Of a stretch of DNA of 17,526 nt, positions 1 to 17,526 are shown in pieces. The notes below the pieces were generated by a model that saw nothing but the letters and a program-made list of their open reading frames with translations, did no database searches and was not told the origin of the DNA. Each line of letters opens with the position of its first letter. Position 1 is the first letter of the stretch. The translations under genes and the position numbers were made by a program. This stretch comes from a virus (Duplodnaviria > Heunggongvirae > Uroviricota > Caudoviricetes): the IMG/VR virus record IMGVR_UViG_2645727821_000005, positions 1 through 17,526 of that record; one strand, 5' to 3'.

Positions 1-237
1 GTAACCATAAGGCGGCGTCCACAGAAAGGCCTTCCAGCCCCCGTGCTCAGCCAGAAACGACTCCAGCGCCGTGGCCTCCTCACGGGAGACAGACAGCGTC
101 ACGCTGTACGTTTTCAGGTCAGCGTTCAGCCCGGCAGGCGCACGCTGGGAATAGCCATCACCAAAGCGCACCTCCCTGACGGAAGGAGCCGATGTCACAT
201 CCATCCCGGGTTTCACTTTCCAGCGGAAGGTTTTCAT
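1..237 (-). CDS. M: Tail protein gpM (lambda M-like), partial: 3' end runs off the window edge
   Basis: Minus-strand ATG at 237..235 (MKTFRWKVKPGMDV...) reads in frame to position 1 with no stop. The ATG overlaps the TGA stop of H (ATGA coupling). Position directly downstream of H matches lambda gene order. Confidence 0.8.
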   Translation of the reverse strand, partial: MKTFRWKVKPGMDVTSAPSVREVRFGDGYSQRAPAGLNADLKTYSVTLSVSREEATALESFLAEHGGWKAFLWTPPYGY

Positions 238-2816
238 CGTCCACCTCCGTAGAACAGACCACCATCGCGCATCTGTGCCTGGATTTCATCACGGGCACCC
301 TTGCGGGCCATGTCATACACCGCCTTCATCATCTGTGGACCTGGCAGACCATTCGTACCGTCGTTCTGAATCACCACGTTGTTGTTCTGCTCAAACCTGA
401 TACCCTCTGAACGCCGCATTTGCGCCGGACTTCCGGTGCCACCGACATAACCGCCAGTGGCATAGCCGCGCATCAGCCGGTAGAGATTCCCCACGCCAAT
501 CCGGCTGGTTGCCTCCTTCGTGAAGACAAATTCACCACGGTGAACAATCCCCGCTGGCTCATATTTGCCGCCGGTTCCAGTAAATCCTCCGGTTGCAAAA
601 TGAAATTTCTCCGCAGCGGCCTGAATGGCTGTACCGGTTGAGACGGATGCGCCGCCACCAACAACTCCGCCAATGACGCTGCCGATACTCCCGACAATCC
701 CCACCATTGCCTGCTTAAGCAGAATTTCTGTCATCATGGACAGCACGGAACGGGTGAAGCTGCGCCAGTTCTGCTCACTGCCGGTCAGCATCGCCGCCAT
801 ATTCTGCGCAATACCATCAAAGGTCTGCGTGGCTGCACTTTTAACCTGCGACATACTGTCCGTGGCGCTCTCTTCCCACTCACTCCAGCCGGACTTCAGG
901 CCTGCCATCCAGCTCCCGCGAAGCTGGTCTTCAGCCGCCCAGGTCTTTTTCTGCTCTGACATGACGTTATTCAGCGCCAGCGGATTATCGCCATACTCCT
1001 CCTTCAGGCGCTGTTCCGTGGCTTCCCTCGCTGCCTGCCGGTCAGTCAGCCCCCGGCTTTTCGCATCAATGGCGGCCCGTTTTGCCCGTTGCTGCTGTGC
1101 AAATTTATCCGCCTGCTTCGCCAGTTCGTTCAGCCGTTTCTGGTGTTCAACCTTATCGCCAAGTTCAGCCAGCTGACGTTTGTACTCCAGCGTCTCTTTT
1201 TCATGAGCAAGAAGAGATTTTTCCTCGATACTTAGCGATTTCTTCTGTCCGTCCAGAACGTCAGCAGACAACTTCTCATGCAACACGGCATACTGGCTTT
1301 CGGCTGTCCACAAATCCCGGCGCTGCTGGCTGATTTTTTCATTCGCTCCGCTATGCTGCTCAAGCATTTTTAGTTCAGCTTGTAACGCAAGAAGAGCTGC
1401 ATGTGCTCGATCTTCCTGACGCTCTCCCGCAGACACCTTCACGCCGGACTGTTTCGGCTTTTTCAGCGTCGCTTCATAATCCTTTTTCGCCGCCGCCATC
1501 AGCGTGTTGTAATCCGCCTGCAGAATTTTCCCGTCTTTCAGTGCCTTATTCAGTTCTTCCTGACGGGCGGTATATTTCTCCAGCGGCGTCTGCAGCCGTT
1601 CGTAAGCCTTCTGCGCCTCTTCGGTATATTTCAGCCGTGACGCTTCGGTATCGCTCTGCTGCTGCGCATTTTTGTCCTGTTGACGCTGTTGATCTACCCT
1701 CTTTTGGGCTGCATCCCGCTCCAGGCGTTTTTTTTCACGATCATCCCAGTAACGCGCCCGCGCTTCATCGTTAACGAAATAATCATCCTTGCGCAGATTC
1801 CAGATGTCGTCTGCTTTCTTAAACGCAGCCTCTGCCTTAATCAGCATCTCCTGCGCGGTATCAGGACGACCAATATCCAGCACCTCATCCCACATGGATT
1901 TGAATGCCCGTGCTGTCCTGTCTGCCCAGGTCTCCAGCGTGCCCATGTTCTCTTTCAGGCGGCGGGTCTGGTCATCAAACCCTTTCGTTGCGGCCTCGTT
2001 CGCCGCCTGCAATGCCCCGGCTTCATCGCCGGAACGCTGCAACTGAGCAACATACGCAATCTGCTCCGCCGTCACGTTATGGAACTGGCGCGCCATCGCC
2101 GTCAGCCCCGACGTCGGGTCAGTGGTCAGCTTCCCGAAGGCTTCAGCGACCTTGTCCACCTCCACGCCGGATGCAGAGGAGAAACGCGCCACACTCTGGC
2201 TGATGGACGCAATCTGAGCCTCACCGCTTACCCCCGCCTTAACCAGTGCACTGAGTGACTCGCTGGTCTGGTTAAACGTCAGCCCTGCCGCCTGCCCGGC
2301 TCTGGACAGGACCAGCATACGATCTGCCGTCAGACCCGACTGATTGCCGGAAAGGACCAGCGTTTTGTTGAAATCGGACAGGGTTGAGTTGCCCTGATAC
2401 CAGGCATACGCCAGCGCACCGGTCGCCACCGCCAGCGAGGTTGCCCCGACCATCGGCAGGGTGATCGCACCGGCAAGCCCCCTGAACATGGGGATCATCC
2501 CGCCGAAGGAGTCCTTCACCTGACCACCCTGTTGCAGCAGGATCAGCCACGGACTTTGCCCGCCTGCAAGCTGCGTGGCCACGTCGGTGAACTGCGCAGG
2601 CAGCATACGCATGGCAGCTTTATACTGCCCGACGGAAATCCCCGCTTTCTGTGCAGCCAGTGCCTGTCGGCTCAGCGACTGTTCAACGACTGCCGCTGTT
2701 TTTTTCGCATCACTTTCCGTACCGGAAAAATGACGCCTGACTCTGGCCATCTGCTCGTCAAATCTGGCCGCATCCAGACTCAAATCAACGACCAGATCGC
2801 CTACCGGTTCAGCCAT
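234..2816 (-). CDS. H: Tail tape measure protein gpH
   Basis: 860-aa ORF, ATG at 2816..2814. N-terminus MAEPVGDLVVDLSLDAARFDEQMARV and C-terminal glycine-rich region match lambda gpH as I recall it; long coiled-coil-like central region. Start overlaps the end of the T reading frame. Confidence 0.93.
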   Translation of the reverse strand: MAEPVGDLVVDLSLDAARFDEQMARVRRHFSGTESDAKKTAAVVEQSLSRQALAAQKAGISVGQYKAAMRMLPAQFTDVATQLAGGQSPWLILLQQGGQVKDSFGGMIPMFRGLAGAITLPMVGATSLAVATGALAYAWYQGNSTLSDFNKTLVLSGNQSGLTADRMLVLSRAGQAAGLTFNQTSESLSALVKAGVSGEAQIASISQSVARFSSASGVEVDKVAEAFGKLTTDPTSGLTAMARQFHNVTAEQIAYVAQLQRSGDEAGALQAANEAATKGFDDQTRRLKENMGTLETWADRTARAFKSMWDEVLDIGRPDTAQEMLIKAEAAFKKADDIWNLRKDDYFVNDEARARYWDDREKKRLERDAAQKRVDQQRQQDKNAQQQSDTEASRLKYTEEAQKAYERLQTPLEKYTARQEELNKALKDGKILQADYNTLMAAAKKDYEATLKKPKQSGVKVSAGERQEDRAHAALLALQAELKMLEQHSGANEKISQQRRDLWTAESQYAVLHEKLSADVLDGQKKSLSIEEKSLLAHEKETLEYKRQLAELGDKVEHQKRLNELAKQADKFAQQQRAKRAAIDAKSRGLTDRQAAREATEQRLKEEYGDNPLALNNVMSEQKKTWAAEDQLRGSWMAGLKSGWSEWEESATDSMSQVKSAATQTFDGIAQNMAAMLTGSEQNWRSFTRSVLSMMTEILLKQAMVGIVGSIGSVIGGVVGGGASVSTGTAIQAAAEKFHFATGGFTGTGGKYEPAGIVHRGEFVFTKEATSRIGVGNLYRLMRGYATGGYVGGTGSPAQMRRSEGIRFEQNNNVVIQNDGTNGLPGPQMMKAVYDMARKGARDEIQAQMRDGGLFYGGGR

Positions 2817-3647
2817 ACCGGACTCCTCCTGCGATACCTTCTGATACTGTCATCAGCATTACGTCATCCTCCGTCATGTCCGCCACATCCGGGGAAGCGG
2901 GGATAACTTCATTCCCGTCCGGGCCAAAGCGGACGCCTCCGGCAAGCCCTGCCGCTTTCTGCATCAGCACATCATCTTCAGGCTCTTCGTCAGCCTCGCG
3001 CCGGTTCAGCAGACTGAAATCCAGCGGATGCATATCCGGATCGCTGAAAAACAGGCTGAGCACGGTGTACGTCAGCCCGGAAAAGTGCATATCCAGCAGA
3101 ACATCATGAAAATAATGGGTACTGTAAAAGCGGTGCCAGTCGGCATACTCCGTGGATGACATCCCGGCGAGCATGGCGCGCCAGTCGGGTCGCCCCATCT
3201 CGCGCGCCAGTTTCAGGGCAAAACTCAGCTCACCGTCGAACACTTTCCCGCAGAAACAGGCTCTGCAGGCCCGGCGTCCTCTGCCTGGTCAGGGGCATCA
3301 TTCACCACAAACTCATACATTCCGGACAGCCGGTACACCACGTTTTCAGCATGAGAAATTGCCGCTGTGGGCCAGGTGGTAAGCACTTCCTGCTCAATCT
3401 GTTTAACGGCTTCATTCATGGACGGCTGCTTTGTCTTCTGCGGATGGTTATGCCACAGGGACATCGCCACCAGAAACGCGCCGGTTCTGATGGCGTCTTC
3501 CACAGTAAACTTCCGGTTGCTGTCTGACTCCGCCTGTTCTGCCTGCCGTTTCATCAGGGCGAGATGCTCAATACGCTGCAGGGCTGACAGTTCAGAAAGC
3601 GTGACGGTCACGCCGTTATATTCAAATGATTCGGTTTTCAGGAACAT
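2809..3647 (-). CDS. T: Tail assembly chaperone gpGT, made by a -1 programmed frameshift from G into the T frame
   Basis: The T frame (2809..3243) is open in the -1 frame relative to G and has no independent start with an RBS. Slippery heptamer G GGA AAG lies at minus-strand 3249..3243. T frame ends 8 nt inside the start of H. Confidence 0.85.
3225..3647 (-). CDS. G: Tail assembly chaperone gpG
   Basis: 140-aa ORF (MFLKTESFEYNGVTVTLSEL...), ATG at 3647..3645 preceded by GGAGAG. Same length as lambda G. Ends SAGKCSTVS immediately after the GGGAAAG slippery heptamer. Confidence 0.92.
   Translation of the reverse strand: MFLKTESFEYNGVTVTLSELSALQRIEHLALMKRQAEQAESDSNRKFTVEDAIRTGAFLVAMSLWHNHPQKTKQPSMNEAVKQIEQEVLTTWPTAAISHAENVVYRLSGMYEFVVNDAPDQAEDAGPAEPVSAGKCSTVS
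3243..3249 (-). other. Programmed -1 ribosomal frameshift slippery site GGGAAAG (G to G-T)
   Basis: Plus strand 3243..3249 is ctttccc, reverse complement GGGAAAG, lying across the last codons of G (…A-G-K-C-S-T-V-S-stop). The -1 frame continues into the T ORF. Confidence 0.85.
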
Positions 3648-3662
3648 CGCTGACTCTCCGGA

Positions 3663-4403
3663 TTAGCTGTCGGTGACGTTGATTTCTGCAACCGCAGCAA
3701 ACTCACCATTACCGGATACAACCGGAATGTTGACCCTGCCTGCAGCAACGCCCTTCACGGTGATGGTCATACCACTGACCGACACGGTGGCTTTTGTTTT
3801 ATCCGAAGACACCGCACGGAAGCTCTTGTCGGTTGCGCCTTCCGGCTGGAATGCCACGGTCAGCGTGGTGCTCTGCCCTTTCACCACCGAGGTGCTGGCA
3901 GGCGTCACGGTCATGCCGGTTGCCGCTGTTACCGTGCTGCGATCTTCTGCCATCGACGGACGTCCCACATTGGTGACTTTCACCGTGCGGGTGATCACTT
4001 CCTTCGCCGTCACCGCCTTACCGATACTGCTGACCCAGCCACGGAACACATCGACCGTGCCGTTCGGGAAGCGAATTTTATAGGCACGGGTATCACCTTC
4101 ATTAAACCACGCCAGCAGCGCCTGCTGCCCCTGCTCTCCGGGCATCCACGCCAGCGTGAAACTGGTATCTCCGGCAGATTTCTGCCCCTGCCCGGTCGCA
4201 GTCCAGTCCGCATCTTCATCATCGAGATAGCTGTCGTCATAGGACTCAGCGGTCAGTTCGCCGGGTGTCAGGTCTTTAACTTTTGCCAGACGCGACCAGT
4301 CAACGTCTGAAAGCGGGTTTGCATAAGGGTCGCCGCTCCCGTTATAAACCCACAGTGTGGTCCCGGCCCCTTTCACCGGTGCCAGAGGATTTGGTGTTGG
4401 CAT
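3663..4403 (-). CDS. V: Major tail tube protein gpV
   Basis: ATG at 4403..4401 preceded by GAGGA gives 246 aa ([20 protein letters not shown]...), the lambda V length. The ORF-track start at 4433 is an upstream in-frame extension that overlaps U. C-terminal Ig-like region present. Confidence 0.9.
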
Positions 4404-4410
4404 ATCGTCC

Positions 4411-4806
4411 TCACATTTCATAGGTAATGACATAAGTCAGATCGGCTGAACTCCACAGGCCCGCATCATCGTCGCGCCGGTAGTCATAGCCGCTGGCCAC
4501 CATACTGGTGATCAAATCTGACAGTGCCGGGATATCGCTCATCACCGGATAAATCCGGGACTCCATCCACGCATCCAGCTCTGAATCCGGCACCTGAGCA
4601 GGCAGGAAAACTTCGATATGCAGCTCCGCCTGCCAGGTATCGCTGTCCAGCTCTTCGCCCGTGTATTCAGCGCCAGTGAGATAAACGGCAATTGCCGGAA
4701 AATCCGCCTCATCAAAAACAGCGGGGCGACCATCAAAAAGCGTCGCCCCGGTGTCATGCTTCTCCAGTGCATCCAGTACGGCTGCACGGAGTTCAGTATG
4801 TTTCAT
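4411..4806 (-). CDS. U: Tail tube terminator protein gpU
   Basis: 131 aa ([21 protein letters not shown]...), same length as lambda U. ATG overlaps the Z stop (ATGA). Confidence 0.92.
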
Positions 4807-5378
4807 CGCTTTATCACAATCCTCAGTTGTTGTTTCAGCGCATAGCTCAGTTCTTTTGGCAGACGTTCTCGCCGGATACGGTTAACGTTCTCATCAAAAG
4901 CCTGTTTCAGTGGGACCGCCATCGGAATTTTCACCACCTGAATGGGAAGACGATTACGCTTTTTCCTTCCCTTATCGTCAGTGCCCTTCGCATACCGTGC
5001 TTCTGGCAGACGTTGCATAACATGCCAGCGTCCATTATTTAATCGCTGGATGAATGCCCGCTGATAACGATGCTGACCGGCTTTGAGTATGCTGTTCGGG
5101 CGATGACCAAGCATCCTGATCCCCAGCTTAATAGCAGGGAGATCACCTCGGTTAACGATAATTTTTGCATTCGGATTTCTGACCGTAGCTCGTTTCAGTC
5201 TGGATCGCTCTTTAACCAGTTTTCTCGGCACCCGGGTTTCACGGGCGACCTGAGACGAAGACTGATTAATCGCCGTTGCGGCCACGCGGTTAATGGCCAT
5301 TGCTGACGCACCAGGCACCGCCGTTTTGCTGATACGGCTGAGGTTTTCAACGGCCTGCTCAAGACCTTTTATGGCCAT
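4803..5378 (-). CDS. Z: Tail completion protein gpZ
   Basis: 191 aa (MAIKGLEQAVENLSRISKTAV...), ATG at 5378..5376. Position and length match lambda Z (192 aa as I recall). Confidence 0.88.
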   Translation of the reverse strand: MAIKGLEQAVENLSRISKTAVPGASAMAINRVAATAINQSSSQVARETRVPRKLVKERSRLKRATVRNPNAKIIVNRGDLPAIKLGIRMLGHRPNSILKAGQHRYQRAFIQRLNNGRWHVMQRLPEARYAKGTDDKGRKKRNRLPIQVVKIPMAVPLKQAFDENVNRIRRERLPKELSYALKQQLRIVIKR

Positions 5379-5389
5379 ACACCCCCCTT

Positions 5390-5743
5390 TCAGCGACGAC
5401 GGTTAACGGCAGGCGGCACACCACGCCCAAGCCAGAGATGACAACTTCCGCCATCATCCGGCGAAATCCGGTCTATCCAGAAGTTTTCCTCACCGATGGT
5501 CAGCGTGTCGCCGCGCCGCAGCTGCCGCACATCATCAGTCCGGACAAACAGGGACGGGCTGGAGCCTTCAACGCGCACGCCCTGTCCGGCATAGCTGATA
5601 TTTTCAGGGTCATCAAAAACACCACGTATCACCGCACCGGACTGCTCACCGGATGTCATGGTGGCTGACGTTCCCATGTACCCGCGTATCGTTTCATCGG
5701 CGCGGGCAATGGCAGCATCGAACAGGTTATCGAAATCAGCCAC
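5390..5743 (-). CDS. FII: Head-tail joining protein gpFII
   Basis: 117 aa (MADFDNLFDAAIARADETIRGYMG...). GTG start at 5743..5741 preceded by GGGAGG with 4-nt spacer. Confidence 0.9.
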   Translation of the reverse strand: MADFDNLFDAAIARADETIRGYMGTSATMTSGEQSGAVIRGVFDDPENISYAGQGVRVEGSSPSLFVRTDDVRQLRRGDTLTIGEENFWIDRISPDDGGSCHLWLGRGVPPAVNRRR

Positions 5744-5754
5744 AGCGCCTCCCG

Positions 5755-6153
5755 TTATTGCATTCTGGCCAGGCCACGTTCTGTCATTTCGGCTGCCACA
5801 CCGGCAGAGACACGGAACGCCGTTCCCGGCAGCACAAATGCCACAGGTTCATCCCGCGTGGCGTGAAGTGCATCGGTATGCAGCGTCACCAGTGCCACTA
5901 CCGTGACCAGTTCAGCCGTATCATGAATCACGGTATCCGGCTGCGCTGATACCACCTCATTTTCATGCCCGGTCAGCGCATTTTCCGGGCTGACAGATGT
6001 GTCCTGACCGGCAGCGTCATCCGTGTCATCAAGCTCCTCTTCCAGCTCTGCCACACGGAGTGCCAGTTCTTCTTTCGTCCCCGTCAGGCTGACATCACGG
6101 TTCAGTTGCTCACCCAGCACCTGAAGACGGGCAATCAGTTCATCTTTCGTCAT
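5755..6153 (-). CDS. FI: DNA packaging / head assembly protein gpFI
   Basis: ATG at 6153..6151 preceded by GGAGGAG gives 132 aa (MTKDELIARLQVLGEQLNRDV...), the lambda FI length. The ORF-track start at 6192 is an upstream extension. Confidence 0.9.
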   Translation of the reverse strand: MTKDELIARLQVLGEQLNRDVSLTGTKEELALRVAELEEELDDTDDAAGQDTSVSPENALTGHENEVVSAQPDTVIHDTAELVTVVALVTLHTDALHATRDEPVAFVLPGTAFRVSAGVAAEMTERGLARMQ

Positions 6154-6194
6154 GGACTCCTCCACAGAGAGAAAATGGCCCCGAAGGGCCATGA

Positions 6195-7220
6195 TTACGC
6201 CAGTTGTACAGACACGAATTCATCAGGGTCAGCCAGCAGCATCAGCGGTGCTGACTGAATCATAGTGAACTCACGCGCCGGATCGCCGGTGGTCACCCAG
6301 TTTTTCGGGTAACGGGCAGAGGCGTTAATGCCTTCGCGCTGTGCGTCCGCATCCTGAATGCAGCCATAGGTGCGCAGACCGCGTGCCTGAGTGTTCCCCA
6401 GCACCATCGTGTTGTCCGGCAGGAAGTTCTTTTTGACGCCGTTTTCCACGTACTGTCCGGAATAAACGACGATGGCCACATCGCCATACATTCCCTTATA
6501 AGACACCGCTTTGCCCAGGTCTTTCACCGCTGTCTCCAGCTCGGAATGAGAGCCGCGACGGGTATCCAGCTTATCCTTGACGGCCTTGAAGGAACGGAAC
6601 AGCGCCCAGCCTTTCGGATCAAACACGATGATATTCACCACACCGCTGGCGTTCAGCGCGTAGGCTTCGATATCGTCGGTCGGGTCATACGTGGACTTGT
6701 CACGCTGGCTCCACTGCGTGCCGCCGGACTGCGTGATGTTATTCGCCGCACTGCGGCCCATATCCACTTCAACCGGATCGAAGGCTTCACCGGTCATGGT
6801 GTATTTGCCCTTAAGCACGGCAGAAACGGCCTGCATCTCTTCGACCTGAGCAATGGCCAGCTCTTCGTCACGCATGTTCTGCATGATGATGCGACGGCGG
6901 CGGTAAGCCGGGTCCGCCAGATTCTGTGGATCTTCATCCGGCAGGCGACGCAGGGTCATCTGCGGATTCACCTCATGCTTCGGCTTGACATATCCCGGCG
7001 TAAATTCAGAGGTGGAGCCGCCACGGGAACGGATAACCTCACCGGAAACAATCGGCGAAACGTACAGCGCCATGTTTACCAGTCCCGGAATTTGTGAGAG
7101 ATAGACTTTCTCCGTGGTGAAGGGATAGCTCTCACGGAAAAAGAGACGCAGAAACAGCGGATCAAACTTAAATTTCTTCTCATTTGCCGCCAGCAGCTGG
7201 GCAGTTGTGTACATCGACAT
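6195..7220 (-). CDS. E: Major capsid protein gpE
   Basis: ATG at 7220..7218 gives 341 aa (MSMYTTAQLLAANEKKFKFDPLFLRLFF...), the lambda E length. The ORF-track start at 7247 is an upstream extension into the D-E intergenic hairpin. Confidence 0.93.
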   Translation of the reverse strand: MSMYTTAQLLAANEKKFKFDPLFLRLFFRESYPFTTEKVYLSQIPGLVNMALYVSPIVSGEVIRSRGGSTSEFTPGYVKPKHEVNPQMTLRRLPDEDPQNLADPAYRRRRIIMQNMRDEELAIAQVEEMQAVSAVLKGKYTMTGEAFDPVEVDMGRSAANNITQSGGTQWSQRDKSTYDPTDDIEAYALNASGVVNIIVFDPKGWALFRSFKAVKDKLDTRRGSHSELETAVKDLGKAVSYKGMYGDVAIVVYSGQYVENGVKKNFLPDNTMVLGNTQARGLRTYGCIQDADAQREGINASARYPKNWVTTGDPAREFTMIQSAPLMLLADPDEFVSVQLA

Positions 7221-7230
7221 AAAAAAATTC

Positions 7231-7257
7231 CGTAAAAAAAGCCGCACAGGCGGCCTT
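7231..7257 (-). terminator. Putative intrinsic terminator/attenuator hairpin between D and E
   Basis: Minus strand reads GCCGCCTGTGCGGC (5-bp GC-rich stem, 4-nt loop) followed by TTTTTTT, between the D stop and the E start. Confidence 0.5.
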
Positions 7258-7275
7258 TAGTGATGAAGGGTAAAG

Positions 7276-7608
7276 TTAAACGATGCTGATTGCCGTTCCG
7301 GCAAACGCGGTCCGTTTTTTCGTCTCGTCGCTGGCAGCATCCGGCCAGAGCACATCCTCATAACGGAACGTGCCGGACTTGTAGAACGTCAGCGTGGTGC
7401 TGGTCTGGTCAGCATCAACCGCAAGAATGCCAACGGCAGCACCGTCGGTGGTGCCATCCCACGCAACCAGCTTACGGGTGGAGGTGTCCGGCATCAGCGG
7501 GGTCATTGCAGGCGTTTTCGCACTCAATCCGCCGGGCGCGGTTGCGGTATGAGCCGGGTCACTGTTGCCCAGCGGCTGGTAATGGGTAAAGGTTTCTTTG
7601 CTCGTCAT
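7276..7608 (-). CDS. D: Head decoration protein gpD
   Basis: ATG at 7608..7606 preceded by AAGGGA gives 110 aa ([27 protein letters not shown]...), the lambda D length. Confidence 0.92.
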
Positions 7609-7617
7609 AAACATCCC

Positions 7618-8223
7618 TTACACTGGTGTGTTCAGCAAATCGTTAACGGCATCAGATGCCGGGTTACCTGCAGCCAGCGGTGCCGGTGCACCCTGCATCA
7701 GACGATCCAGCGCAGTATCACTGCGCGCCTGTGCACTCTGTGGTGCTGCGGCCAGAATGCGGCGGGCCGTTTCCACGGTCATACCGGGGGTTTCAGCCAG
7801 CACGCGGGCCTGTTCTTCGCGTCCGTGAGCCTCCTCACAGTTGAGGATCCCCATAATGCGGCTGTTTTCTGCCGCAACTGCTGCGGTGATCTGCGCGTTC
7901 ACGTCCGGCTGCGCCGCGCTGGCGTTTTCGCCCTCCGTCTCTGGCATCACGTCAGTAACGTCAGCCTGCGAAGCAGTGGCTGAAACAGTTGTTGATTGGG
8001 TCTCTTTGGTCATTCGCCCTCCTGAGAGACGGGATTTACGTGCATCCAGTGCATCACGCATGACGGTGATCGCATCGGTGCTGTTAACAAGTTCATCAGC
8101 CAGTCCGGCATCAATGGCCTCCTGACCGCTGTACACTGCAGCCTCGGTATCCAGCACAGCCTGCACGGACAGGCCGGTATATGCCGACACCTTCTGCGCA
8201 AACATCCGGCGGGTTGCATCCAT
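7618..8223 (-). CDS. Nu3: Scaffolding protein gpNu3, nested in frame in the 3' third of C
   Basis: Internal in-frame ATG at 8223..8221 (MDATRRMFAQKVSAYTGL...) gives 201 aa sharing the C stop, as in lambda. Called from the lambda precedent and the presence of the ATG, not from an independent signal. Confidence 0.6.
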   Translation of the reverse strand: MDATRRMFAQKVSAYTGLSVQAVLDTEAAVYSGQEAIDAGLADELVNSTDAITVMRDALDARKSRLSGGRMTKETQSTTVSATASQADVTDVMPETEGENASAAQPDVNAQITAAVAAENSRIMGILNCEEAHGREEQARVLAETPGMTVETARRILAAAPQSAQARSDTALDRLMQGAPAPLAAGNPASDAVNDLLNTPV

Positions 8224-8917
8224 CCGGGACTGCAGTGTCTCCCGGACGTCATCCGGAAGATGGCTGTAGGGGTTGCCATCCACCTTATGGCTGCCGCTGT
8301 AAATCAGCGTGATTTCCATGCCCTGTTTCTCCAGCGCAGCGCCGTAATTACTGTGAGCCATCATGACGCCGATGGAGCCTGTCCGGGCGGTCTGTGTGAC
8401 CAGACGCCGGGAGGCGGCACTGGCAAGCAGCTGACCTGCACTGCAGTTCATGTCGTTGGCCAGCGCCCATACCGGTTTTATGTCACGCACACGGGCGATG
8501 ATGTCAGCGCAGTCAAATGCCCCCGCCACCATCCCGCCGGGCGTGTCCATATCGAGCAGAATGCCGTCCACCATCGGATCGCTGGCAGCCTGTTGCAGAC
8601 GGGCGATAATGCCGTTGTAACCGGTCATCCCCGAATACGGCTGCAGCGCCCGCGTCCGGCTGACCAGCGTGCCGGACACCGGCAGCACGGCGATGCCGTT
8701 CATGACCTGATAACTGCGGGCCTGTCGTGGTCCGTCATCATCAACGGATAACGCCAGCGTCGCGGGTGCCTCTCCGGCAGTCAGGCTGTCACCGGACACC
8801 GCATCCGTCAGGCGGCTGATCCCAAGCTGGCCTGCAAGCGCACAAAAGAAAACCCGCGCATAGGCGGGTTCAAGCATCAGCGGCTCATTAAAGGCCATGC
8901 TGGCAATATGCGGGAGA

Positions 8918-8937
<20 letters not shown>
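7618..8937 (-). CDS. C: Head maturation protease / scaffold gpC (ClpP/S49-like)
   Basis: GTG at 8937..8935 preceded by GGAGGAGAAGA gives 439 aa (VTAELRNLPHIASMAFNEPLML...), the lambda C length. Start overlaps the 3' end of B by 20 nt as in lambda. The ORF-track start at 9072 is an upstream extension. Confidence 0.9.
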
Positions 8938-12618
<3,681 letters not shown>

Positions 12619-12644
<26 letters not shown>

Positions 12645-13164
12645 TCAGCAACCCCGGTATCAGTTCATCCAGCGCGGCTGCTTTGTTCATGGCTTTGATG
12701 ATATCCCGTTTCAGGAAATCAACATGTCGGTTTTCCAGTTCCGGAAAACGCCGCTGCACCGACAGGGGGATCCCGTCGAGAATACTGGCAATTTCACCTG
12801 CGATCCGCGACAGCACGAAAGTACAGAATGCGGTTTCCACCACTTCAGCGGAGTCTCTGGCATTTTTCAGCTCCTGTGCGTCGGCCTGCGCACGCGTAAG
12901 TCGATGGCGTTCGTACTCAATAGTCCCTGGCTGGAGATCTGTCTCGCTGGCCTGCCGCAGTTCTTCAACTTCCCGGCGCAGCTTTTCGTTCTCAATTTCA
13001 GCATCCCTTTCGGCATACCATTTTATGACGGCGGCAGAGTCATAAAGCACCTCATTACCCTTGCCACCGCCTCGCAGAACGGGCATTCCCTGTTCCTGCC
13101 AGTTCTGAATGGTACGGATACTCACACCGAAAATGTCAGCCAGCTGCTTTTTGTTGACTTCCAT
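12619..13164 (-). CDS. Nu1: Terminase small subunit gpNu1
   Basis: 181 aa (MEVNKKQLADIFGVSIRTIQNWQEQGMPVLRGGGKGNEVLYD...), ATG at 13164..13162. N-terminal winged-HTH region. Sits about 190 bp downstream of cosN as in lambda. Confidence 0.95.
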
Positions 13165-13400
13165 TGTTCATTCCACGGCCAAAAACAGAGAAAGGAAACG
13201 ACAGAGGCCCAAAAGCTCGTTTTCAGCACCTGTCGTTTCCTTTCTTTTCAGGGGGTATTTTAAATAAAAACATTAAGTTACAACGAAGAAGAACGGAAAT
13301 GCCTTAAACCGGAAAATTTTCATAAATAGCGAAAACCCGCGAGGTCGCCGCCCCGTAGCCTGCCGGATCGCCGGAAAGGACCCGCAGGCGTTCTGGTTTA
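13165..13400 (-). other. cos region (cosB between cosN and Nu1, cosN, and the cosQ side)
   Basis: Reverse complement of 13261..13353 reads GGGCGGCGACCTCGCGGGTTTTCGCTATTTATGAAAATTTTCCGGTTTAAGG..., the lambda left end as I recall it. Plus strand 13354..13385 (cgtagcctgccggatcgccggaaaggacccgc) resembles the lambda right end. Confidence 0.85.
13342..13353. other. cosN 12-nt cohesive-end sequence (GGGCGGCGACCT on the minus strand)
   Basis: Plus strand 13342..13353 is aggtcgccgccc, the exact reverse complement of the lambda 12-nt cohesive end. Confidence 0.85.
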
Positions 13401-13435
13401 TTCTCAATGAATTCAATGTCTGACAGACCTGCGTC

Positions 13436-13453
13436 GTGCGACCACGGTCGCAC
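13436..13453. repeat. 18-bp palindrome GTGCGACCACGGTCGCAC, copy 1 of 3
   Basis: 8-bp inverted arms GTGCGACC / GGTCGCAC around a 2-bp centre. Identical 18-mer recurs at 15122..15139 and 15342..15359. Confidence 0.9.
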
Positions 13454-13477
13454 AGCAATGAATCAACATCCTGCATG

Positions 13478-13546
13478 CTCGTGCAGAGGAGTTCCCCGTC
13501 AGGCTACGGTCATGGTTAATGCGGGAATACAGCGACGATACAGCGC
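13478..13546. repeat. Direct repeat, copy 1 (~69 bp; partner at 15263..15331)
   Basis: ctcgtgcagaggagttccccgtcaggctacggtcatggttaatgcgggaatacagcgacgatacagcgc aligns to 15263..15331 in the same orientation with 5 mismatches (about 93% identity) at an offset of 1785 bp. Confidence 0.9.
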
Positions 13547-13662
13547 ATGATGTGTCAGGCTTGAATACATTTATCCGTTAAAAGGGATATCAGTTAAGTT
13601 ATCCCGTGTAGGGTATAAGCCATTATCAAAGCCACTCAGTAGCGAATGGCTTTTGTAATGGA

Positions 13663-14112
13663 CTATTTAATTAGTGATGCTGCGTATTCGATTAGATATA
13701 ACTTAGGTGCCAACCAGATTTTTAACCATGTCATATTGGTTACTACAGCAATAATAAAACTTACCCACAGAACAAAAACTGCTGCTAATGGTAAGATAAG
13801 AAAACTAATCTCACCGTTACTTTCCCAAATCATAGTCGGTTTGTATTTAGGCTTCCCTTTTTCCCATGACCATCCTTCATTATCGAACTTACCAATTTCA
13901 ACTTTTTGGTACTGTTTCTTCATAAACCAAATAACCAGCGGGATTGTTGAAATGGCTATTAATGTTTTAATCAGGCTATCAACCATATTCCATACCAGCA
14001 ACTGATGAACAACATCCGGAATCTGAGCCTGACTGAATGCAATGGCGGAATCAATTCCATCGCTGGCCTTCTTCAATAAATCAACAAGAATTTTATTTGC
14101 TTCTTCTTGCAT
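13663..14112 (-). CDS. Hypothetical small membrane protein (149 aa; at least two predicted transmembrane segments), AT-rich accessory gene
   Basis: ATG at 14112..14110 with a weak AGGA-type RBS (MQEEANKILVDLLKKASDGIDSAIAF...). Hydrophobic stretches LIKTLIAISTIPLVIWFM and ISFLILPLAAVFVLWVSFIIAVV. Lysine-rich, low GC compared with the flanking phage genes. No family recognised. The ORF-track start at 14157 is an alternative. Confidence 0.7.
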   Translation of the reverse strand: MQEEANKILVDLLKKASDGIDSAIAFSQAQIPDVVHQLLVWNMVDSLIKTLIAISTIPLVIWFMKKQYQKVEIGKFDNEGWSWEKGKPKYKPTMIWESNGEISFLILPLAAVFVLWVSFIIAVVTNMTWLKIWLAPKLYLIEYAASLIK

Positions 14113-14237
14113 GTTTATATCCTGTAAGTTGTAAGCCTGTTCGAGAAAAATAAACAACTACGAGAGACAGAAAAAAAATATCTCAGGCTCTCTTTCTATA
14201 AGCTTTTAGTTGAGGATGTTCTGCAAAACAAAACTGG

Positions 14238-15098
14238 TTAGTTATGTAACTGCTTCCGGAATACAACAGCCGACGAGCTACAACGTAAAATTCGTTTGAT
14301 TGTGGCAGTTGAGGAAACATACTTGCATTTCTCAACATCATCAATAATGACCACATCCGGTACAGGAATGACGCGGGTATGCAATGTTTTTGCACTAATA
14401 ACATCACAGCCATTCAGTGGTCGAATATCTGCATCTTCAGGCACTACCAGAAGCACACGTTTTTCCGGTGCAGAAAAGCCAGCAGCAAGAGTGCGTGACA
14501 ATAAAGTCATTCCGCTGCGTGGCTTCATACAAATTTCAGAAATATGATTCTTTTCGTCCAAATGATGCTGGACATCATTTTTATCATCACTCAACAACTC
14601 TGCTGTTAATACAATCCCTGCTGTCTCAGATTTCCAGGAAATGCTGATATCCTGATCATCTGCATCAACATCATATTTCATCGAGTAAGGACTAAAGCTA
14701 CGTCCAACGAACGCATCATTTACCAGTACACGCCCACCCTGTCTGACCTGAAAGTCAACGCGCCCTGAAAGCTGATTTGCTGTTACAAGCAATGCCTTTT
14801 TTCTTTTTGTTTTATTGCTCATTGCCACCAACTGTTCAGCCATCTCTCTTGTCACACTACCAGAAACTCTTTCTTGAATTTTCACAGAAAATTTTCTGGA
14901 TGTAGTAGCATCGACATTAAAAAATCTGGATGTCATCAGGCAGTTATTAACAATTGGCATCAGCTCACTTACGATTGTAAAAAATTCCCGGTAAAGCTCA
15001 TTTTGCTTTTCAACACACAGCTTTCCACAATCGTCCAGCTTACGCTCAAGAGCACTTAACCTTTCCATTATTGAATTAATTTTTTGCAACTCTTTCAT
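14238..15098 (-). CDS. Hypothetical protein (286 aa), AT-rich accessory gene with a coiled-coil-like N-terminus; function unknown
   Basis: ATG at 15098..15096 preceded by a strong AGGAGG RBS at 5-6 nt spacing (MKELQKINSIMERLSALERKLDDCGKL...). The 373-aa ORF in the track extends upstream through the repeat and palindrome region and is probably not translated. Low GC. No family recognised. Confidence 0.75.
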   Translation of the reverse strand: MKELQKINSIMERLSALERKLDDCGKLCVEKQNELYREFFTIVSELMPIVNNCLMTSRFFNVDATTSRKFSVKIQERVSGSVTREMAEQLVAMSNKTKRKKALLVTANQLSGRVDFQVRQGGRVLVNDAFVGRSFSPYSMKYDVDADDQDISISWKSETAGIVLTAELLSDDKNDVQHHLDEKNHISEICMKPRSGMTLLSRTLAAGFSAPEKRVLLVVPEDADIRPLNGCDVISAKTLHTRVIPVPDVVIIDDVEKCKYVSSTATIKRILRCSSSAVVFRKQLHN

Positions 15099-15120
15099 CA
15101 AAACCTCCTGACAAAAATAC

Positions 15121-15140
15121 CGTGCGACCACGGTCGCACG
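15121..15140. repeat. 18-bp palindrome, copy 2 of 3 (9-bp arms here), just upstream of the 286-aa gene RBS
   Basis: cGTGCGACCACGGTCGCACg. On the minus strand the hairpin is followed by GGTATTTTTGT and then AGGAGG and the ATG, so it is terminator- or attenuator-like. Confidence 0.85.
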
Positions 15141-15262
15141 CTCCTGAATACATGCCCTGTTTCTTCCACCCTCGCACAGGACTGGCGAGCATGAGGGACA
15201 AACCCGCGAATCATTAGCGCGGTAAAAACCCGGTGTGCATCGTTTTTGATTATTTCCGCACA

Positions 15263-15331
15263 CTCGCGCAGAGGAGTTCCCCGTCGGGCTACGGTCATGG
15301 TTAATGCGGAAATACGGCGACGATGCAGCGC
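15263..15331. repeat. Direct repeat, copy 2 (~69 bp; partner at 13478..13546)
   Basis: ctcgcgcagaggagttccccgtcgggctacggtcatggttaatgcggaaatacggcgacgatgcagcgc; see copy 1. Confidence 0.9.
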
Positions 15332-15340
15332 GGTATTTAA

Positions 15341-15360
15341 TGTGCGACCACGGTCGCACA
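15341..15360. repeat. 18-bp palindrome, copy 3 of 3 (9-bp arms), 20 nt downstream of the DUF4406-like gene stop
   Basis: tGTGCGACCACGGTCGCACa. On the minus strand it follows the TAA of the upstream gene and is followed by the A/U-rich ATTAAATAC. Confidence 0.85.
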
Positions 15361-15378
15361 CGAGAAACAAAGAGATTT

Positions 15379-15690
15379 TTATGCTACAGAGGAACAAGCT
15401 GGCGGGTAATTCAGCGTAGTGAATACCGGCATCTCCATCTTGTATGCGTAATGATACTCAGCAGTTGCTCCAGCAGACGCTTTCCAGCCAGGAAGCATCA
15501 AAATAGCATCCGCACAACGAAGCATTGCAAAGCAAATATCCATGTATTCACGTTGTGTCAGACCATTAGGTAAAGTGGCTGGATTCAAGACAGAGTGACC
15601 ATGTCGTGACAAACGATCTGCCTCTTTATTAAAGGCGTCACGATTAAAGTTCTCATATCCCGTCATTGGCCCGGCAATATAAATTTTCAT
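15379..15690 (-). CDS. Small accessory protein, DUF4406-like / nucleoside 2-deoxyribosyltransferase-like (103 aa)
   Basis: ATG at 15690..15688 (MKIYIAGPMTGYENFNRDAFNKEADRLSRHGHSVLNPATLP...). The N-terminal MKIYIAGPMTG...NP motif is what I recall as characteristic of DUF4406. Sits directly downstream of Rz. GC is visibly lower than the head genes. Family call is from memory. Confidence 0.75.
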   Translation of the reverse strand: MKIYIAGPMTGYENFNRDAFNKEADRLSRHGHSVLNPATLPNGLTQREYMDICFAMLRCADAILMLPGWKASAGATAEYHYAYKMEMPVFTTLNYPPACSSVA

Positions 15691-15731
15691 TCACTATCCA
15701 ACAAATTGAGTTCGTTTTTGATACAGAGGGA

Positions 15732-16199
15732 TTAATTCAGGCATTGCGTATTGATGTATTCCTGAAGCGTTCTCAGTGCTGTTTGGTCGCGGATAATTCC
15801 GTCCCGGATACCGAGAACGTTTCGTCCAGCAACTGAAGAGAGTTCGACGGTGGCATCATTGCCCATGCCGGAGGCGCTGGAGGTTTTGGCTGAGGCTGGC
15901 ACAAGGCATTTTCCTTTGACGAGCACCCGACCACCATTATCAAGCTTACGCCGAAGAGCATCATTTTCAGCTTTCGCATTGGCTAACTCCTTCGTGTATT
16001 TAGCATCGAGTGCATCAGCAGCACGCTGGCGCTGCTGCATGTCAGCGATGGTGGCGGTCGCCTGCTTCAGCTCACTGACTTTTTTATCACGCTGTTCTTT
16101 GTAGGCGATGGCGTTATCACGGTAATGATTAACAGCCCACGACAGGCAGACGATGATGCAGATAACCAGAGCGGAGATAATCGCGGTTAACCGACTCAT
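15732..16199 (-). CDS. Rz: Spanin inner-membrane subunit Rz (i-spanin)
   Basis: ATG at 16199..16197 ([40 protein letters not shown]...) gives an N-terminal transmembrane helix, then a coiled-coil periplasmic domain; N-terminus is like lambda Rz. The ORF-track start at 16235 is a GTG extension. Confidence 0.85.
15773..15979 (-). CDS. Rz1: Spanin outer-membrane lipoprotein subunit Rz1 (o-spanin), embedded in the +1 frame of Rz
   Basis: 68 aa ([44 protein letters not shown]...). ATG at 15979..15977, lipobox-like VVGC and a proline-rich segment, entirely inside Rz in a different frame as in lambda Rz/Rz1. Confidence 0.8.
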
Positions 16200-16287
16200 G
16201 ACATCAACACCCCAACGGCTAGAAACCACGGCCACGCATCGTTGCCATTAAATGCGAGCAACGCTGCCATGAAAAAGCAAATCATGC

Positions 16288-16785
16288 TCATTGCTGCCCC
16301 CACAAACAGACTTCTCGCTCAATATCACGACGGGTCATCAGCCCTTTCCATTGCTTACCGCCAGCGTATGTCCAGCGACGCAACTGGTCACATGCGCCCT
16401 TGATATCGCCCTGGTTTATTTTGCGAAGAAGCGTCGATGTTCTGAAATTACCAGCACCCACGTTGTAAACGAATGAGTAAAGAGCGCCGCGCGTTGTTTC
16501 CGGTATATCGACTTTGATGTACGGGTTAATTTGTCTGGCGACAGTGGCAAGGTCTTTATTCAGGAGGGCTTTGCATTCTGCTTCGGTATACGTTTTACCG
16601 AGCATGATGTCTTTTCCGGTGTGTCCGTGACATACAGTCCATACGCCAACGATATCTTTGTATGGTATGTAGCTGACACCTTCCAGGCCATCGTCACCAC
16701 CTGGGCCAGTGATTAACACTGATGCTATAGCAATTGCTCCGCCACCAATAGCAGCAGCAACGGCTTTTCGTAATGATGGAGGCAT
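16288..16785 (-). CDS. R: SAR endolysin (T4-lysozyme-family muramidase with N-terminal signal-anchor-release domain), phage 21 R-like
   Basis: 165 aa ([59 protein letters not shown]...). Gly/Ala-rich weakly hydrophobic N-terminus typical of SAR endolysins, followed by a lysozyme catalytic region. ATG overlaps the S stop (TAATG). Confidence 0.9.
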
Positions 16786-17000
16786 TATTCACCTCTCGCA
16801 GCCTTGCGCTTATCTTCTTTAATCTTGAAATAAAGGTTTGTCAGGTACGTCAGCAGGCCAAATACCAGGCTACCCAGCACACCTATTGCTGCCCACTGTG
16901 AGGGCGTGACTTTATCGAGCAACTGTAAAAACCAATACCCGGCACTACCTGCTGAGGTGCCATAGGCGACACCCGTTGTTAACTTATCCATGGATTTCAT
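16785..17000 (-). CDS. S: Pinholin (phage 21 S-like holin/antiholin with dual-start motif)
   Basis: 71 aa ([71 protein letters not shown]). Two transmembrane segments. MKSM dual start at Met1 and Met4. RBS GAGGTGG. Immediately upstream of the SAR endolysin. Confidence 0.9.
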
Positions 17001-17031
17001 AACCCCACCTCGCAGATGCGGGTGCTGTGTA

Positions 17032-17060
17032 ATGGAAATAAAAAGGCCACCTGCGTGGCC
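17032..17060 (-). terminator. Putative intrinsic terminator between the methyltransferase gene and S
   Basis: Minus strand reads GGCCACGCAGGTGGCC (6-bp GC stem, 4-nt loop) followed by TTTTTATTT, in the 66-bp gap between the methyltransferase stop (17067) and the S start (17000). Confidence 0.6.
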
Positions 17061-17066
17061 ACCAGA

Positions 17067-17526
17067 TTATTTCCCCACCAGCTCGTTTATCTCTTTCACT
17101 GTCTGGTTAAACCGCCCTGACTCAAGATCAACACCTAAGGCCCGACGCCCCAGCGCCATTGCTGCTTTTATTGTGGAACCGGATCCCATAAAAAAATCAG
17201 CAACCAGATCACCTGGTCGACTACTGGCATTGATTATTTGCCTGAGCATATCCGCCGGTTTCTCACACGGATGTTTCCCCGGGTAGAACTGAACGGGTTT
17301 ATGCATCCAGACATCGGTATAAGGCACGGAGACTGATACGGAGAAATAGCGCCGGAGAGATTTAAACTCATCCAGCAATTCAGAATATTTGCGATTCAGT
17401 GAATCATAAGATGCCACCAGCTGGTGGTGTGGTTGTTCCAGTTGTTGTTCCTGAAACTTCTCTGCCGCTATACGGGAAAACAGTGCCTGTAACTTCCGAT
17501 AGTCAGCCTCATTCGGCAACTGCCAC
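17067..17526 (-). CDS. DNA methyltransferase (N6-adenine/N4-cytosine family, beta-class motif order), 3' portion only; 5' end lies outside the window
   Basis: C-terminal ...HKPVQFYPGKHPCEKPADMLRQIINASSRPGDLVADFFMGSGSTIKAAMALGRRALGVDLE... contains the FxGSGST AdoMet-binding motif I near the C-terminus. The DPPY-type catalytic motif expected upstream is not in the window, so the Met at 17519 is probably not the true start. Confidence 0.8.
   Translation of the reverse strand, partial: WQLPNEADYRKLQALFSRIAAEKFQEQQLEQPHHQLVASYDSLNRKYSELLDEFKSLRRYFSVSVSVPYTDVWMHKPVQFYPGKHPCEKPADMLRQIINASSRPGDLVADFFMGSGSTIKAAMALGRRALGVDLESGRFNQTVKEINELVGK

Follow-up and report, generated by a model that had tools for sequence, protein, structure and literature searches.

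An M.EcoGII-family adenine methyltransferase gene and a terminator-like hairpin upstream of the pinholin gene of a lambda-like late region

The stretch of phage DNA that we analysed, 17,526 nucleotides long and hereafter called the window, ends inside a methyltransferase gene of the M.EcoGII family that lies directly upstream of the lysis genes. Taken as a whole, our reading is that this is a Q-dependent late gene whose product would hypermethylate progeny DNA before lysis, and that the hairpin behind it would serve as a second terminator; we think this reading likely. The Q, pR' and tR' of the window phage and the N-terminal catalytic half of the enzyme are predicted from its relatives. The long reading frames of the window all lie on the minus strand, and a lambda-like late operon runs from the holin gene (17000) to the tape-measure gene (2816-234). 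The features discussed below are as follows.

17067..17526, minus strand: 3' part of an M.EcoGII-family beta-class N6-adenine DNA methyltransferase gene (PF01555, PHROG 6952, identities)
17178..17192, minus strand: FxGxG AdoMet-binding motif I (F-M-G-S-G), read from the translation
17034..17060, minus strand: intrinsic-terminator-like element, a stem-loop and U-tract TTTTTATTTCC (U-tract 17044-17034; scan, folds, comparison)
17006..17024, minus strand: second hairpin, CACCCGC-AUCU-GCGAGGUG (minimum-energy and centroid folds, -8.8 kcal/mol)
16785..17000, minus strand: S21-type pinholin, 71 aa, with an MKSM (Met1/Met4) dual start (PF04971, E 2e-35; translation)
16288..16785, minus strand: SAR-type endolysin, 165 aa (PF00959, E 1.8e-45; translation)

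The methyltransferase gene and its family

The methyltransferase frame (17525..17067, minus strand) holds 152 open codons of about 350 and closes with a TAA stop at 17069-17067. The fragment matches the Pfam family PF01555 (N6_N4_Mtase; E 7e-23; score 82 bits, cutoff 26.7), with an alignment to positions 132-220 of the 221 in the profile, and it matches PHROG 6952, 'DNA methyltransferase', with an E-value of 5e-88. It comprises the last part of the target-recognition domain together with the AdoMet-binding lobe at the C-terminus. The FMGSG motif lies 35 residues before the C-terminus, a placement that corresponds to the beta-class order, and motif I in the full-length relative aligns with motif I of solved beta-class enzymes. 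The Pfam match and the C-terminal FxGxG thus bear out the initial annotation, which had described the 3' end of a beta-class N6A/N4C methyltransferase. The catalytic DPPY motif falls beyond the window; in the 98.7%-identical Ayreon/cdtI protein it occupies residues 35-38, near the N-terminus, and this points to adenine, not cytosine, as the target.

The 152 window residues align without gaps, at this 98.7% identity, to the C-terminus of the intact 350-aa Ayreon/cdtI protein; on this alignment, the gene is cut by the window edge and not by mutation. Only 152 codons are visible, and many Stx2a phages hold remnants comprising just the last ~35 codons, so that a pseudogene, truncated or frameshifted beyond the window edge, might be imagined. 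We consider this highly improbable: the visible frame is uninterrupted and nearly identical to intact genes, 1105 of the 1108 matching E. coli genomes align to 80% or more of the 526-bp query, and an intact 350-aa gene is found in every relative inspected.

The M.EcoGII enzyme family is well characterised and is sold as a reagent. M.EcoGII and M.EcoGI, which are encoded by prophages of E. coli O104:H4, are non-specific N6-adenine methyltransferases; M.EcoGII modifies adenine whatever the surrounding DNA sequence, and its authors count it among a very large family carried by E. coli prophages (Murray et al. 2018, PMC5778455). Identity to the M.EcoGII sequence in Supplementary Table S1 of PMC11551740, a machine-read PDF that could contain a few misread letters, is 74% (110/149; 73.8%) for the window fragment and 81% (281/347) for the full-length Ayreon/cdtI relative. 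Identity to the reconstructed ancestor Anc291 is 85% for the fragment and 89.6% for the full-length relative; the corresponding values for SUPREM, which is itself 70% identical to M.EcoGII, are 72% and 71%. The target-recognition domain is 77% identical to that of M.EcoGII, and 67% over the part that lies inside the window. The genomic setting also agrees with that of the family, since the window is a lambda-like late operon and the relatives carry the gene between Q and the lysis or stx genes. Judged by these comparisons, the window gene is a member of the M.EcoGII family.

Like the window enzyme, M.EcoGII is a beta-class protein of about 350 aa from E. coli lambdoid prophages, and its close homologues (93-94% identical) likewise lie after Q and ahead of the stx or lysis genes. 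The window enzyme belongs to a different sublineage (the Ayreon/cdtI/SfV/mEp460 type), and its gene has a terminator and then the holin gene immediately after it, whereas the M.EcoGII type has tRNA and stx genes downstream.

Membership in the family predicts that the window enzyme methylates adenines with little or no sequence specificity, so a search for a target motif should find none. An alternative is that it is a sequence-specific orphan adenine methyltransferase with a narrower anti-restriction or regulatory role. Its target-recognition domain differs from that of M.EcoGII by about 23%, or 33% in the window part, and M.PflMI, the nearest site-specific relative, falls in the same sequence-similarity cluster, both of which would suit such an enzyme. 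[quoted passage not shown] The window enzyme also sits well inside the E. coli prophage clade, which Murray et al. treat as one large family. A methylome study of the O111 STEC strain 95JB1 reports that no motif attributable to the M.EcoGI/GII homologues was detected (PMC6602927).

The lysis genes and the two hairpins upstream of S

Downstream of the methyltransferase, S begins with an ATG at 17000, leaving a gap of exactly 66 nt (17066..17001) after the stop codon; both this distance and the pinholin itself had been called in the initial annotation. PF04971 is the Pfam family 'Bacteriophage P21 holin S', and RefSeq names the homologues of the pinholin EssD. The endolysin has a Gly/Ala-rich, signal-anchor-release-like N-terminus and the residues E35/D44/T50, and its homologues are named RrrD in RefSeq. 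The PF04971 match, the dual start and the adjoining endolysin with its SAR segment place these genes with the S21-type pinholins and SAR endolysins. Indeed, the cassette resembles that of phage 21 (the S21 dual-start pinholin and the R21 SAR endolysin) in all of these respects, down to MKSM and E35/D44/T50, and also in having a stem-loop over the S ribosome-binding site.

The initial annotation had noted a GC hairpin and U-tract ahead of S, and our consensus scan recovers it as the hairpin GGCCACGCAGGTGGCC at 17060..17045 followed by TTTTTATTTC. The hairpin, GGCCAC-GCAG-GTGGCC, starts 6 nt past the methyltransferase stop and has six pairs, five of them G-C, around a tetraloop, with a free energy of -11.1 kcal/mol; eight of the nine nucleotides of the tract that follows are U. 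It therefore has the features of an intrinsic terminator, a G+C-rich stem-loop and a U-tract (UUUUUAUUU). Five terminator-like sites occur in the last 1.5 kb, compared with 1.4 +/- 1.4 in shuffles; this one ranks first among them, and the other four lie outside intergenic gaps. For the 81-nt intergenic stretch, the folding energy is -30.7 kcal/mol versus -21.2 +/- 3.3 kcal/mol for 200 shuffles (z -2.9), none of which was as good. From these features we predict that the hairpin terminates transcription and is the second intrinsic terminator of the region. Its use in both directions was rejected: the opposite strand has the same stem with a poor U-tract (ACCAGAUUAUUU) and no nearby gene.

We compared the hairpin across 11 distinct intergenic variants drawn from about 170 loci. 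The first hairpin occurs with five loop forms while its stem and U-tract stay constant, the only change in the stem being from G-C to G-U. Over both stems of the gap, the 11 variants show no compensatory double changes and only two wobble-compatible ones, which is too little variation for covariation, and part of the stem conservation could be due to recent shared ancestry. In the SfV and Ayreon records, the hairpin was independently annotated as a terminator by the depositors, and in phages such as SfV it accompanies the methyltransferase next to a different holin. In the L088/L133 lineage, the hairpin is replaced, with the sequence breakpoint at the first base of the stem, and the M.EcoGII-lineage genes of Stx phages are followed by tRNA genes without such a terminator; the hairpin is thus not essential to the module. 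Homology of the methyltransferase module ends near 17006, and that of the S21 module begins near 17016-17024.

These boundaries might instead point to a hairpin without useful termination, either an element for stability or processing at the 3' or 5' ends of mRNA or a palindrome at the recombination joint between the methyltransferase and the lysis genes. The mosaic joints fall exactly at the hairpin gap, the L088/L133 sequences diverge at the stem's first base, the hairpin is missing from the Stx-phage lineage, and the stem lacks compensatory double changes. Set against this are the full set of canonical features, in composition, loop, U-tract and distance from the stop codon, the restriction of variation to the loop, and the terminator annotations by two independent groups of depositors. 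We think that an element of this other kind is improbable, and a terminator remains our preferred reading. Rfam models gave nothing above the gathering score in the window, and in the Q-to-S region of Ayreon, searched at E<=1, only sub-threshold leader-like matches that reflect the terminator hairpins.

The second hairpin, which the initial annotation had missed, pairs the Shine-Dalgarno sequence of S (GAGG). Among the variants, the only change in its stem is from A-U to G-U. It is kept, with another loop, in PhiR11_1, which has an S21 holin and a porin gene in place of the methyltransferase, and it is kept in SfV too, despite another holin; this retention indicates that it belongs to the lysis module. 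The second hairpin is probably a translational control structure of the dual-start holin gene, and we take it to be a stem-loop that probably tunes the use of the two start codons, as in lambda S and S21. One could also imagine that the tandem hairpins and the stop codon 6 nt upstream form a coupling device, in which ribosomes finishing the methyltransferase modulate termination or unmask the S ribosome-binding site. We regard this as extremely unlikely; if it were true, holin synthesis would depend on prior translation of the methyltransferase, a checkpoint by which the phage would methylate first and lyse second.

Position of the gene in related phages

Phage Ayreon is 98.9% identical over 827 bp comprising the gene end, the gap and S; cdtI, mEp460 and SfV are 93.7-98.6% identical in DNA over the methyltransferase 3' end and the gap. 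All four phages encode an intact 350-aa enzyme whose DPPY motif is near the N-terminus. The initial annotation had placed the gene between Q and S, and the gene order in Ayreon, SfV, mEp460, E. coli AR437 and Z1323CEC0009 (Q, optional cargo, a conserved ORF of 65-67 aa, the methyltransferase and the holin) agrees. The enzymes of the Stx2 phages 1720a-02 and Stx2_EH2246 are 93.4-93.7% identical to M.EcoGII, and Stx2_EH2246 and phiP27 share the order Q, small ORF, methyltransferase, tRNAs, stxAB (stx2AB in Stx2_EH2246) and lysis genes. Homologues of only 55-61% identity lie directly upstream of the holin in PhiR46_1, in pAH01-1 (a 47-kb replicon) and in the Yersinia phage P840. In every relative examined, the methyltransferase lies between Q and the lysis or stx genes, and the module is paired with at least three different types of Q. 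In GC content (0.48-0.51), the methyltransferase gene does not differ from Q and the lysis genes, whereas obvious cargo has values of 0.35-0.40. Since the position is kept even in the 55-61%-identical homologues, the methyltransferase is, on these comparisons, a long-standing resident of the Q-to-S slot and not a recent insertion.

The 526-bp segment is present in 1108 of 5426 complete E. coli genomes (~20%); an exact match to the window was not found among them, the best being 99.4% over 526 bp. The gene is already annotated in SfV, cdtI, mEp460 and Ayreon, and the arrangement is common and already known, so it is not a new type of element. SfV orf48 (NC_003444) is the same gene, with the same hairpin and position as in the window and a 'putative rho-independent terminator' annotated downstream, and cdtI, mEp460 and Ayreon carry it as well (93.7-98.9% DNA identity over the 3' end and intergenic region). 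SfV differs from the window in that its methyltransferase module is joined to a different holin and the loops of both hairpins are different. In PhiR11_1, which is DLP12-like, the porin gene before S is in reverse orientation, in the place where the window has the methyltransferase.

Several further observations concern these loci. The 65-67-aa ORF (Ayreon locus 2554-2757; equivalents in loci L002, L003, L005, L006 and L089) always precedes the methyltransferase; it belongs to PHROG 331, the phiP27 copy is named a TrmB-family regulator in RefSeq, and searches of Pfam and NCBIfam gave no match. It is followed by a strongly structured leader of 150 nt (z -2.8), with no obvious Shine-Dalgarno sequence in this leader before the methyltransferase start; the leader could provide dedicated control of methyltransferase translation. 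In E. coli AR437, the Q-to-S interval (locus 454-3315) has an extra gene for a DNA cytosine methyltransferase, and its opposite strand encodes a HEPN-like nuclease and a DUF262 protein; these genes are likely to be defence cargo inserted between Q and the module of small ORF and methyltransferase. In many Stx2a phages, TL-2011c and ArgO145 among them, all that is left of the methyltransferase is its final ~35 codons (66% identity), apparently a remnant of the gene.

The rest of the window is mosaic too. A joint at the S/R boundary divides positions 1-16778 from 16779-17526. From R onward, the best matches are E. coli records of 46-62 kb annotated as plasmids (for example pAH01-1) and phage YDC107_1, which could be plasmid prophages and which have a different holin and a 55%-identical methyltransferase at the same position; the window methyltransferase and S match chromosomal prophages instead. 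Between the endolysin stop and the Rz start lies a hydrophobic 31-aa ORF (16196-16291, minus strand) with an ATGA overlap at each end. The closest chromosomal relative lacks it and has R and Rz in direct overlap. The ORF is found with 97-98% identity in 18 phage records; most are P22-like Salmonella phages (Emek, SEN22, BTP1), E. coli phage 2B8 is also among them, and some of the records annotate it as hypothetical. Finally, a low-GC block (0.36-0.41) at 13600-15360 on the minus strand, between the lysis cassette and Nu1, looks like cargo; it contains two ORFs without known function (PHROG 2571, ~286 aa; PHROG 3054, ~149 aa) and is preceded by an ORF resembling DUF4406 or nucleoside 2-deoxyribosyltransferase proteins (15379-15690).

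Proposed control of late transcription and DNA modification

Terminators also lie upstream of the methyltransferase in several relatives. In Ayreon, Q is followed by a promoter-like TTGCAT-17-TAAGAT and then by an annotated terminator, AACCCGCCACTGAGCGGGTTTTTTT. A terminator of the same sequence (AACCCGCCACTGAGCGGGTTTTTT) stands before the small ORF and methyltransferase in Ayreon, as a second copy, and in Z1323CEC0009, and SfV has one annotated at the equivalent place; in Ayreon and SfV, the upstream terminator follows closely on Q and is separated from the methyltransferase stop codon by 1.5-2.2 kb. The two copies of the tR'-type terminator in Ayreon (locus 1733-1755 and 2409-2435) flank a low-GC (0.35) lipoprotein-like ORF, which suggests that cargo entered by recombination at the terminator.

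Scans for the sigma-70 consensus in the window end and four relatives yielded no more sites than expected from shuffles, and no promoter-like site that would drive the methyltransferase or S was found in them, although a weak or atypical promoter may escape such a simple consensus. Of the two locations that the initial annotation had allowed for the late promoter, upstream of the window or within the methyltransferase gene, this favours the first. The 43 nt between the U-tract and S contain no promoter-like site either, so every holin transcript must cross the hairpin, and Q-modified polymerase has to read through it.

The need for Q antitermination past the late terminator in lysis is familiar from lambda. 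The lambda tR' resembles the window hairpin in being an intrinsic terminator between the late promoter and the holin gene that is overridden by Q for lysis; one report states that this override is required (PMC7547250). The lambda tR' is, however, the first terminator after pR', whereas the window hairpin would be a second, downstream one. We rejected the idea that the window hairpin is tR' itself, since an upstream tR'-type terminator holds that position in Ayreon, SfV and Z1323CEC0009. The initial annotation had offered a methyltransferase terminator or a tR'-like site read through by Q-modified polymerase; the evidence favours a terminator that Q-modified polymerase has to pass, other than tR' itself. 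Our literature search turned up no statement of the Q-to-S position of M.EcoGII-type genes and no measurement of their dependence on Q.

Our model for the module assumes the order Q, late promoter and tR'-type terminator, optional cargo, 65-67-aa ORF, methyltransferase and lysis cassette (or tRNAs, stx and lysis genes). In the lysogen, polymerase starting at the late promoter would halt at tR', so that the enzyme would not be made and its toxicity would be avoided. Upon induction, Q would render polymerase resistant to terminators, and the methyltransferase would be co-transcribed with the holin, endolysin, spanin and structural genes. After replication, the phage DNA would then become heavily N6-methylated shortly before packaging and lysis, a late modification in a cell that is about to lyse anyway, and this methylation would be expected to blunt many restriction systems of the next host. 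The likely job of the hairpin would be to stop unmodified polymerase that had started downstream of tR', for example in cargo, before it reached the lethal lysis genes.

Q-dependent expression of the window methyltransferase is predicted from this arrangement, as is its silence in the lysogen, which would follow from its place behind a tR'-type terminator and from the lack of a promoter-like site in the relatives. Expression by Q only would explain both the silence and the late timing. M.EcoGII is not expressed in its lysogen and slows growth if it is constitutive (PMC5778455; PMC12707154), and such silence is reported for M.EcoGI/GII and close homologues only. A comparable logic is seen in Mom of phage Mu, which also modifies phage DNA, is silent in the lysogen, is toxic if mis-expressed and is switched on late (PMC12707154); Mom is unrelated to the window enzyme in protein and chemistry and has its own dedicated regulatory circuit rather than Q antitermination.

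The methyltransferase might alternatively be a 'moron', an autonomous gene that has a promoter and a terminator of its own, is active in the lysogen and alters the methylome and gene expression of the host. The Q-to-S interval is indeed a hotspot for cargo, as the AR437 genes for a cytosine methyltransferase, HEPN and DUF262 proteins and the low-GC lipoprotein-like ORF of Ayreon illustrate, and the gene has a terminator after it. It has, however, no upstream promoter-like site above chance in a simple consensus scan, and its GC content is like that of the neighbouring late genes; M.EcoGI/GII are lysogen-silent and harmful when constitutive, and the position is conserved even in distant homologues. 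We consider an autonomous gene of this kind very unlikely and favour expression under Q. The initial annotation had proposed that the enzyme either protects phage DNA or alters the epigenetic state of the host; the evidence favours the former, and, given the reported silence of the family in lysogens, a durable change of the host epigenome is unlikely.

For annotation, a 'DNA methyltransferase' before the lysis genes, as found in ~20% of complete E. coli genomes, can be read as an enzyme of the M.EcoGII type that is not motif-specific. Methylome surveys of lysogens should expect no motif from a methyltransferase of the window type, and the virion DNA of such prophages would be expected to carry dense adenine methylation and to resist cutting. 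The place of the gene behind a tR'-type terminator would offer a simple structural reason for the published silence of M.EcoGII in its lysogen, together with its toxicity when expressed constitutively.
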